Position numbers and translations under genes: made by a program. The notes beneath the pieces were generated by a model. That model did not search any database and was not told the origin of the DNA. It saw nothing but the letters and a program-made list of their open reading frames with translations. Shown here one piece after another: positions 51,783-52,667 of a DNA stretch of 64,000 nt; the first letter of the stretch is position 1, and each line of letters begins with the position of its first letter. The stretch lies in NCBI RefSeq assembly GCF_003334405.1, contig NZ_QOWM01000002.1; one strand, 5' to 3'. The stretch comes from Escherichia coli (lineage in GTDB: Bacteria > Pseudomonadota > Gammaproteobacteria > Enterobacterales > Enterobacteriaceae).

Positions 51783-52667
51783 ATGCCGCGTTTAACCGCC
51801 AAAGATTTCCCACAAGAGTTGCTGGATTACTATGACTATTACGCTCACGGGAAAATCTCGAAACGTGAGTTCCTCAACCTTGCGGCGAAGTGCGGTAGGC
51901 GGGATGACGGCATTAGCGTTGTTTGATTTGCTCAAGCCAAATTATGCGCTGGCGACTCAGGTAGAGTTTACCGACCCGGAAATTGTTGCTGAGTACATCA
52001 CGTATCCTTCGCCAAATGGTCACGGCGAGGTGCGGGGTTATCTGGTGAAGCCCGCAAAGATGAGCGGCAAAACGCCAGCCGTAGTGGTGGTGCATGAGAA
52101 TCGTGGACTGAATCCGTATATCGAAGATGTGGCACGGCGAGTGGCGAAGGCGGGGTATATCGCCCTGGCACCTGACGGCTTAAGTTCCGTTGGAGGTTAT
52201 CCGGGAAATGATGATAAAGGTCGTGAGCTGCAACAGCAGGTTGATCCAACAAACTGATGAATGATTTCTTTGCCGCAATTGAGTTTATGCAACGCTATCC
52301 GCAAGCGACAGGCAAAGTGGGTATTACCGGATTTTGCTATGGCGGTGGCGTATCGAACGCGGCGGCTGTCGCGTATCCGGAACTGGCCTGCGCGGTGCCG
52401 TTTTATGGTCGTCAGGCACCCACTGCCGATGTGGCGAAGATTGAAGCGCCTTTACTACTCCACTTCGCGGAACTGGACACCCGAATCAACGAGGGCTGGC
52501 CTGCTTACGAGGCGGCGTTGAAAGCCAATAATAAGGTTTATGAGGCGTATATCTATCCGGGGGTTAATCACGGATTCCATAATGATTCCACGCCCCGTTA
52601 TGACAAATCTGCCGCCGATCTTGCCTGGCAAAGGACACTGAAATGGTTCGATAAATATCTCTCCTGA
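51783..52667 (+). pseudogene. yghX: Dienelactone hydrolase family gene broken by two frameshifts (yghX-like)
   Basis: Three consecutive ORF pieces in different frames (51783-51926, ~51895-52257, 52257-52667) that read as one DLH-family protein; frame changes near 51895 and 52250; N-terminal Tat-like motif [11 protein letters not shown]. Confidence 0.75.

Follow-up and report, generated by a model that had tools for sequence, protein, structure and literature searches.

The frameshifted pseudogene yghX of Escherichia coli, a dienelactone hydrolase-family gene with two small deletions

The gene yghX of Escherichia coli K-12 is annotated in the reference record NC_000913.3 as pseudogene b4658, and yqhI (b4755, 47 aa) is an annotated CDS in the same record. 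YqhI has been detected experimentally, as one of the small proteins of K-12 that were newly identified (VanOrsdel et al. 2018, PMC6001520), and its 47-aa sequence is exactly the one encoded in the DNA described here. In Swiss-Prot, the product of yghX is named "Putative hydrolase fragment YghX", as quoted in PMC12366299. An older proposal considered yghX a candidate cPHB polymerase on account of its GXCXG motif (PMC3709699), and the pseudogene locus has been used as a gene-integration site in metabolic engineering (PMC7677707). In O157:H7 and other E. coli, yghX is annotated as intact. The structure of the intact protein is available at 2.0 A as PDB 4ZV9 ("uncharacterized protein from E. coli O157:H7 str. 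Sakai"), which covers YghX residues 60-295. With respect to leader sequences, a natural KR variant of the twin-arginine motif is present in the established Tat signal peptide of Salmonella TtrB (PMC1182353).

In this work, a window of 64,000 nucleotides from E. coli (contig NZ_QOWM01000002.1) was analyzed, with a main focus on positions 51783-52667 of the plus strand. This part of the window is almost certainly yghX, with two small deletions that inactivate it and have spread within one lineage of the species, including K-12. The pseudogene is real, already annotated and ordinary, and none of the observations spoke against this reading. Its discovery value is small, as it is part of the K-12 reference annotation, a structure of the intact protein exists and the locus is a routine neutral integration site. 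What the analysis adds are the exact coordinates of the lesions, counts of how often each occurs among 5426 complete genomes, and an intermediate allele from which the order of the two deletions can be proposed.

The yghX locus, its two deletions and the resulting fragments

The pseudogene extends from its start codon to its native stop at 51783-52667 on the plus strand, and a Shine-Dalgarno-like GAGGAG is found at 51770-51775, with the ATG of 51783 located 7 nt downstream. A query of positions 51700-52750 matched in 5426 of 5426 complete E. coli genomes, and the feature beneath the matches is yghX, annotated as "YghX family hydrolase". One strain with 100% identity to the window in this stretch has the RefSeq entry "YghX family hydrolase, frameshifted" at the same extent of 51783-52667. 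The gene is also flagged as frameshifted by PGAP in a derivative of K-12 MG1655. In both strains, the neighbors are gpr, which is located upstream and is divergent, and yghW-hybO downstream. Promoter and terminator scans gave nothing above chance near yghX, and an Rfam scan gave no match inside the gene.

Elsewhere in the window, an inverted repeat with perfect 11-bp arms (TCGCTATATAT-gaca-ATATATAGCGA) is present at 52748-52773 and ends 12 nt before the start codon of yghW (52786). It has an operator-like look, and the terminator scan flagged it on the minus strand only. Rfam matches at the gathering threshold were obtained at 5584-6108, 14805-14953, 42939-43002, 48783-48853 and 59823-59899. 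These represent two SIB RNA copies, an FMN riboswitch, the ES173 sRNA and naRNA4 elements, which is consistent with a K-12-like chromosomal segment.

The preliminary description of this DNA, made from the letters alone, had read three open reading frame fragments as one DLH-family gene split by two independent frameshifts. The list of open reading frames confirms fragments with ends at 51926, 52257 and 52667, each in a frame of its own on the plus strand, and the single split gene is borne out by alignment with intact alleles and by the way the fragments tile the family profile. The lesions were mapped by alignment with six intact E. coli alleles, namely the O157:H7 allele and five others, and this comparison with intact orthologs, which had been proposed as a check, placed the indels precisely as losses of 2 bp and 1 bp. 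At lesion 1 (junction 51890/51891), the bases TA are missing from GAAG[TA]TGCGG, which destroys the codon TAT of Tyr37 and shifts the reading downstream to the +1 frame. At lesion 2 (junction 52249/52250), one C of CCAACCAAAC has been lost (CCAA[C]CAAAC), which affects the codons of Thr157 and Lys158 and creates a TGA stop at 52255-52257. The frame changes had been placed near 51895 and near 52250, within 5 nt of these junctions. The intact alleles are 888 nt long and encode 295 aa, and the gene in the window has 885 nt; when the three missing bases are restored, a single open reading frame of 295 aa is obtained. The frame of the gene is thus disrupted relative to intact orthologs of the same species, as in a frameshifted pseudogene.

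The repaired protein scores 587.3 bits against NCBIfam NF041440 (YghX family hydrolase), well above the curated cut-off of 460 and close to the 584.9 bits of the intact O157 protein, which places it in the family. Without repair, the three fragments reach 55, 234 and 262 bits, all of them under this cut-off, and cover profile positions 1-35, 34-155 and 158-292, respectively. Fragment 1 (51783-51926, plus strand) is yqhI, as supported by the list of open reading frames, the CDS in NC_000913.3, the small-protein study (PMC6001520) and Pfam PF23678. YqhI consists of the 36 native N-terminal residues followed by an out-of-frame tail of 11 aa, and PF23678 ('YqhI-like') covers residues 1-36. Fragment 2 (51832-52257, plus strand) is an open reading frame of 141 aa that carries the native protein from 51891 up to the residues VDPT and corresponds to the first part of b4658. 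Fragment 3 (52257-52667, plus strand; 136 aa) opens at the native Met160 and accounts for the remainder of b4658. All three catalytic codons are located in fragment 3, those of Cys186 at 52335-52337, Asp233 at 52476-52478 and His264 at 52569-52571.

The fragments could also be regarded as separate functional genes, with yqhI as a working small protein and fragment 3 re-initiated to give a C-terminal polypeptide. The 1-bp deletion has created a TGATG overlap at 52255-52259 between the stop of fragment 2 and the native Met160, an arrangement that, judging from the letters, could permit termination-reinitiation. In addition, YqhI is a newly identified small protein in K-12 with an annotated CDS, and the first two helices of the leader are predicted by AlphaFold with high confidence. 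However, conservation of residues 1-36 of YqhI is confined to full-length YghX proteins, of which they form the N-terminus, and the last 11 residues of YqhI are a product of the frameshift. In fragment 3, roughly half of the alpha/beta-hydrolase core is missing, corresponding to beta strands 1-4 of the AlphaFold model, and an active enzyme from this fragment is therefore unlikely. The sole product reported for the broken allele is the 47-aa YqhI (PMC6001520). Separate functional genes are thus a very improbable explanation of this locus, and the fragments are best read as parts of one broken yghX.

Frequency, order and age of the deletions in E. coli

The same lesions had to be looked for in other strains, and both recur across complete E. 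coli genomes. With a 100-nt probe centered on the lesion and a match of at least 99%, i.e., without the 2-nt gap, lesion 1 was found in 1505 of 5426 genomes. A shorter deleted-allele probe of 34 nt, for which an exact word of 28 nt was needed, found 1248 genomes, an undercount caused by alleles with nearby SNPs. The intact site was matched by a probe of the O157 type in only 831 genomes, for which an A/G SNP 7 nt downstream is to blame, and by a shifted 32-nt probe in 3491 genomes. For lesion 2, the deleted-allele probe matched 1198 genomes and the intact-allele probe 4220, which together account for 5418 of the 5426 genomes. The lesions are therefore a polymorphism within the species, present in about 22-28% of complete genomes (frequencies that are inflated, as the collection is enriched in K-12 laboratory derivatives), and both are heritable and not assembly noise. 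Other forms of damage were also seen at this locus: in strain J6 (NZ_CP195973.1), an IS1A element is inserted in yghX, and strain IAL7255 (NZ_CM130730.1) retains just the last 180 nt of the 51700-52750 query.

These counts bear directly on the possibility that the frameshifts arose as errors in sequencing or assembly and that the source strain has an intact gene. Small indels are frequent among such errors, and lesion 2 is located in a short CCAA repeat. On the other hand, the same indels are present in 1198-1505 independent complete assemblies, with many re-sequencings of K-12 among them, the intermediate allele is found in at least four unrelated isolates, and neither lesion lies in a homopolymer run of 5 or more. 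On the allele counts, this explanation was rejected, and its probability is negligible.

Programmed ribosomal frameshifting could in principle bypass both lesions, by a +1 shift near 51890-51926 and then a -1 shift near 52250, and give the full-length enzyme. The stop of fragment 2 (TGA) and the start of fragment 3 (ATG) overlap, and a G-GGA-AAT heptamer is present at 52203 in phase with fragment 2. However, a -1 slip at this heptamer meets a TGA at once, and a scan of the gene found no X-XXY-YYZ heptamer within 40 nt of either lesion. A conserved frame change would be expected of a programmed site, and some 72-78% of E. coli genomes do not have the deletions (4220 of 5426 being intact at lesion 2), which disfavors frameshifting. 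Also, 120 of 120 close homologs are full-length with one open reading frame, as are all the intact alleles retrieved. The plausibility of programmed frameshifting, raised in the preliminary description, thus found no support in the heptamer and homopolymer scan or in conservation. With no slippery site at the lesions and the single in-phase heptamer running into a stop, this candidate was rejected and is hardly conceivable.

With both deletions taken as real, the sampled alleles suggest which of them came first. In four isolates of the sample (ETEC1703, MS20675, 30224_1#291 and O68:H12 97.3), lesion 1 is combined with an intact second site, and lesion 2 alone was seen in 0 of 12 sampled alleles. 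Because four of the sampled genomes carry lesion 1 only, lesion 1 probably arose first and lesion 2 later on that background, an order that rests on the 12 sampled alleles and the genome counts. The first step would have been the 2-bp deletion in codon 37, leaving only the 47-aa YqhI, and the second the 1-bp deletion at codon 157/158, which would have split the catalytic domain. As a result, the allele in the window would be unable to encode the full-length YghX enzyme. Among the 12 sampled alleles, the broken haplotype has two further changes that are found in all carriers and in none of the intact alleles (alignment columns 252 and 303), and both are silent changes at the third codon position. 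As there are just two silent changes on the broken haplotype in these 12 alleles, the loss of yghX is young, yet common to a large clade. It had been described as long-standing, which overstates the age of a polymorphism within one species with only two synonymous changes on the broken haplotype.

Alleles with lesion 1 only have a further feature. In the four sampled ones (in ETEC1703, at 1133-1969 of the retrieved locus), an open reading frame of 278 aa starts from an out-of-frame ATG equivalent to window position 51832 and then rejoins the native frame, in which it ends at the native stop. The h-region, the A-x-A site and the entire catalytic domain are retained behind a new basic N-terminus containing RR. 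This open reading frame is preceded by only a weak GGA at -10 to -8, and PGAP calls alleles with lesion 1 only pseudogenes.

The intact enzyme and its twin-arginine-like leader

The intact gene would yield a protein of 295 aa, composed of a leader of 58 residues and a DLH-fold domain with the triad Cys186-Asp233-His264. The intact protein matches Pfam DLH PF01738 over residues 84-294 with E=2.9e-48. In an alignment of 37 homologs with identities down to 35%, Cys186 (in G-F-C-Y-G, i.e., G-x-C-x-G), Asp233 and His264 are nearly invariant. The AlphaFold model of intact YghX has a pLDDT of 96.2, superposes on 4ZV9 at 1.0 A and resembles Pseudomonas dienelactone hydrolase structures (1DIN-type) with a target-normalized TM of about 0.84. 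On the basis of these alignments, models and structures, intact YghX has the dienelactone hydrolase fold and the Cys186-Asp233-His264 triad of the family.

The leader contains S-K-R-E-F-L at 51858-51875 on the plus strand, which resembles the Tat consensus except for K at the position of the first R, as indicated by the sequence and by comparison with homologs. It is followed by a weakly hydrophobic stretch, then the basic K52 and then A56-L57-A58. The best Kyte-Doolittle mean of the h-region over 12 residues is 1.59, and this weakly hydrophobic h-region and the A-x-A site are both features by which Tat signal peptides are recognized. Most of the 37 aligned homologs have the conserved A-x-A site, and R28 and F30 show at least 90% conservation in this alignment. 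The KR dipeptide is found without exception in 120 close enterobacterial homologs (at least 85% identity). Among 76 homolog clusters, which are the representatives of 50%-identity clusters whose N-terminal motif was recognized by the search pattern, the dipeptide at this position is RR in 57, KR in 14 and another in 5. The common architecture in these clusters is RR or KR followed by F and L/I/M, the h-region and A-x-A. In homolog P0251, the leader is a plain RR leader without N-terminal extension (ARRNFLQKLAV...GNAHA), and those of P0194, P0140 and P0269 are similar. Homolog P0225 has a lipobox (LTALGC), and long Pro/Ala-rich linkers precede the mature domain in P0225, P0257 and P0267.

The strict consensus S/T-R-R-x-F-L-K does not occur in E. 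coli YghX and its 120 close homologs, which have S-K-R-E-F-L. This does not exclude Tat export, because a natural KR Tat leader exists. TIGR01409 and Pfam TAT_signal PF10518 gave no match to E. coli YghX, and none of the curated Tat models reached its cut-off for YghX and 18 homologs, including the RR homologs P0173 and P0194, with 14.1 and 14.5 bits, respectively, against 16.7. A search of the literature on dienelactone hydrolase and twin-arginine found nothing specific to the YghX family. By comparison with its homologs, the leader would bring the folded enzyme to the periplasm in a Tat-dependent manner, and Tat export of intact YghX is considered likely, although at some distance from certainty. 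The suggestion that the KR leader is Tat-like thus holds with regard to the RR/KR comparison, the h-region and the A-x-A site, and receives no backing from the curated Tat models, which stayed below cut-off.

The N-terminus also has properties that appear atypical for a signal peptide. The 25 residues preceding KR are conserved in the 37 homologs, with the motif L-[YF]-D-x-Y-x-H and a nearly invariant His22. AlphaFold predicts three helices in residues 1-60 (11-21, 27-37 and 44-51), with a pLDDT of 90-95 in the full protein, and the 62-residue leader modeled alone has a mean pLDDT of 90. A confidently predicted three-helix leader with a nearly invariant histidine is unusual for a sequence that directs export. 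In a profile search with the leader only, the 120 matches listed were all short DLH fragments or partial open reading frames, and no leader module with a catalytic domain other than DLH was found among them.

The enzyme could alternatively be cytoplasmic, with its N-terminal 58 residues permanently retained as a structural or regulatory domain and the KR/RR pair being coincidental. The high AlphaFold confidence for residues 1-60, whether modeled alone or as part of the full protein, the conserved n-region with His22, and the curated Tat HMMs below cut-off are in line with such a domain. However, the extension is replaced by plain RR leaders in P0251, P0194, P0140 and P0269, the lipobox of P0225 and the Pro/Ala-rich linkers of P0225, P0257 and P0267 are at odds with it, the A-x-A site is conserved, and the catalytic domain was crystallized by itself as a folded protein (4ZV9), in which the chain begins at residue 60 and residues 1-59 are omitted, an indirect hint at export and cleavage. 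A cytoplasmic domain is thus considered rather unlikely, and Tat export is the preferred reading of the leader.

A broader reading joins several of these observations. Rather than a signal peptide of the usual type, the leader would be a three-helix Tat leader that is specific to the YghX family, folds autonomously and became fixed as the KR variant in Enterobacteriaceae. Prior to export, its conserved N-terminal helix would act as a shield for the h-region or as a regulator of the enzyme. In this reading, YqhI of K-12 would be what is left of the module, stably expressed and with an activity that may have been retained or acquired. Separately, the 278-aa open reading frame in the approximately 300 genomes with lesion 1 only might yield an active enzyme. 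Taken as a whole, this combination is speculative and improbable. The biological interest that remains lies in the intact enzyme, namely its substrate and whether its conserved, predicted-folded KR leader drives Tat export.

Comparison with known systems

One of the closest known systems is K-12. The locus in the window is identical to K-12 yghX (b4658) and yqhI (b4755) over all 885 nt and shares both deletions, the neighbors and the 47-aa YqhI, with b4658 corresponding to fragments 2 and 3 and b4755 to fragment 1. An MG1655-derived assembly differs by one intergenic SNP between gpr and yghX at window position 51735 (C here, T there), with no other difference over the 1051 nt of the query. Among clinical and animal isolates, several are 100% identical to the window over 51700-52750, including the C at 51735. 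The window is thus that of a close relative of MG1655 and not of MG1655 itself.

The YghX protein of O157:H7 Sakai (WP_001302757.1; 4ZV9) matches the repaired protein of the window in 293 of 295 residues and has the same leader, fold and triad. The difference is in the gene, which in Sakai is an uninterrupted open reading frame of 888 nt, whereas the window is 3 bases short and cannot encode this protein.

ClcD of Pseudomonas (PDB 1DIN and its mutants; PF01738) shares with YghX the alpha/beta-hydrolase fold, the Cys nucleophile in G-x-C-x-G and the Asp and His. The two proteins are only approximately 25% identical, ClcD is without an N-terminal leader, and carboxymethylenebutenolidase activity is at most putative in YghX.

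With regard to the leader, the first Arg of the twin-arginine pair is replaced by Lys in native TtrB of Salmonella, and YghX similarly has K-R-E-F-L. In contrast to that of TtrB, the leader of YghX has 58 residues with a conserved extension of 25 residues that is predicted to be structured, and its export is putative.
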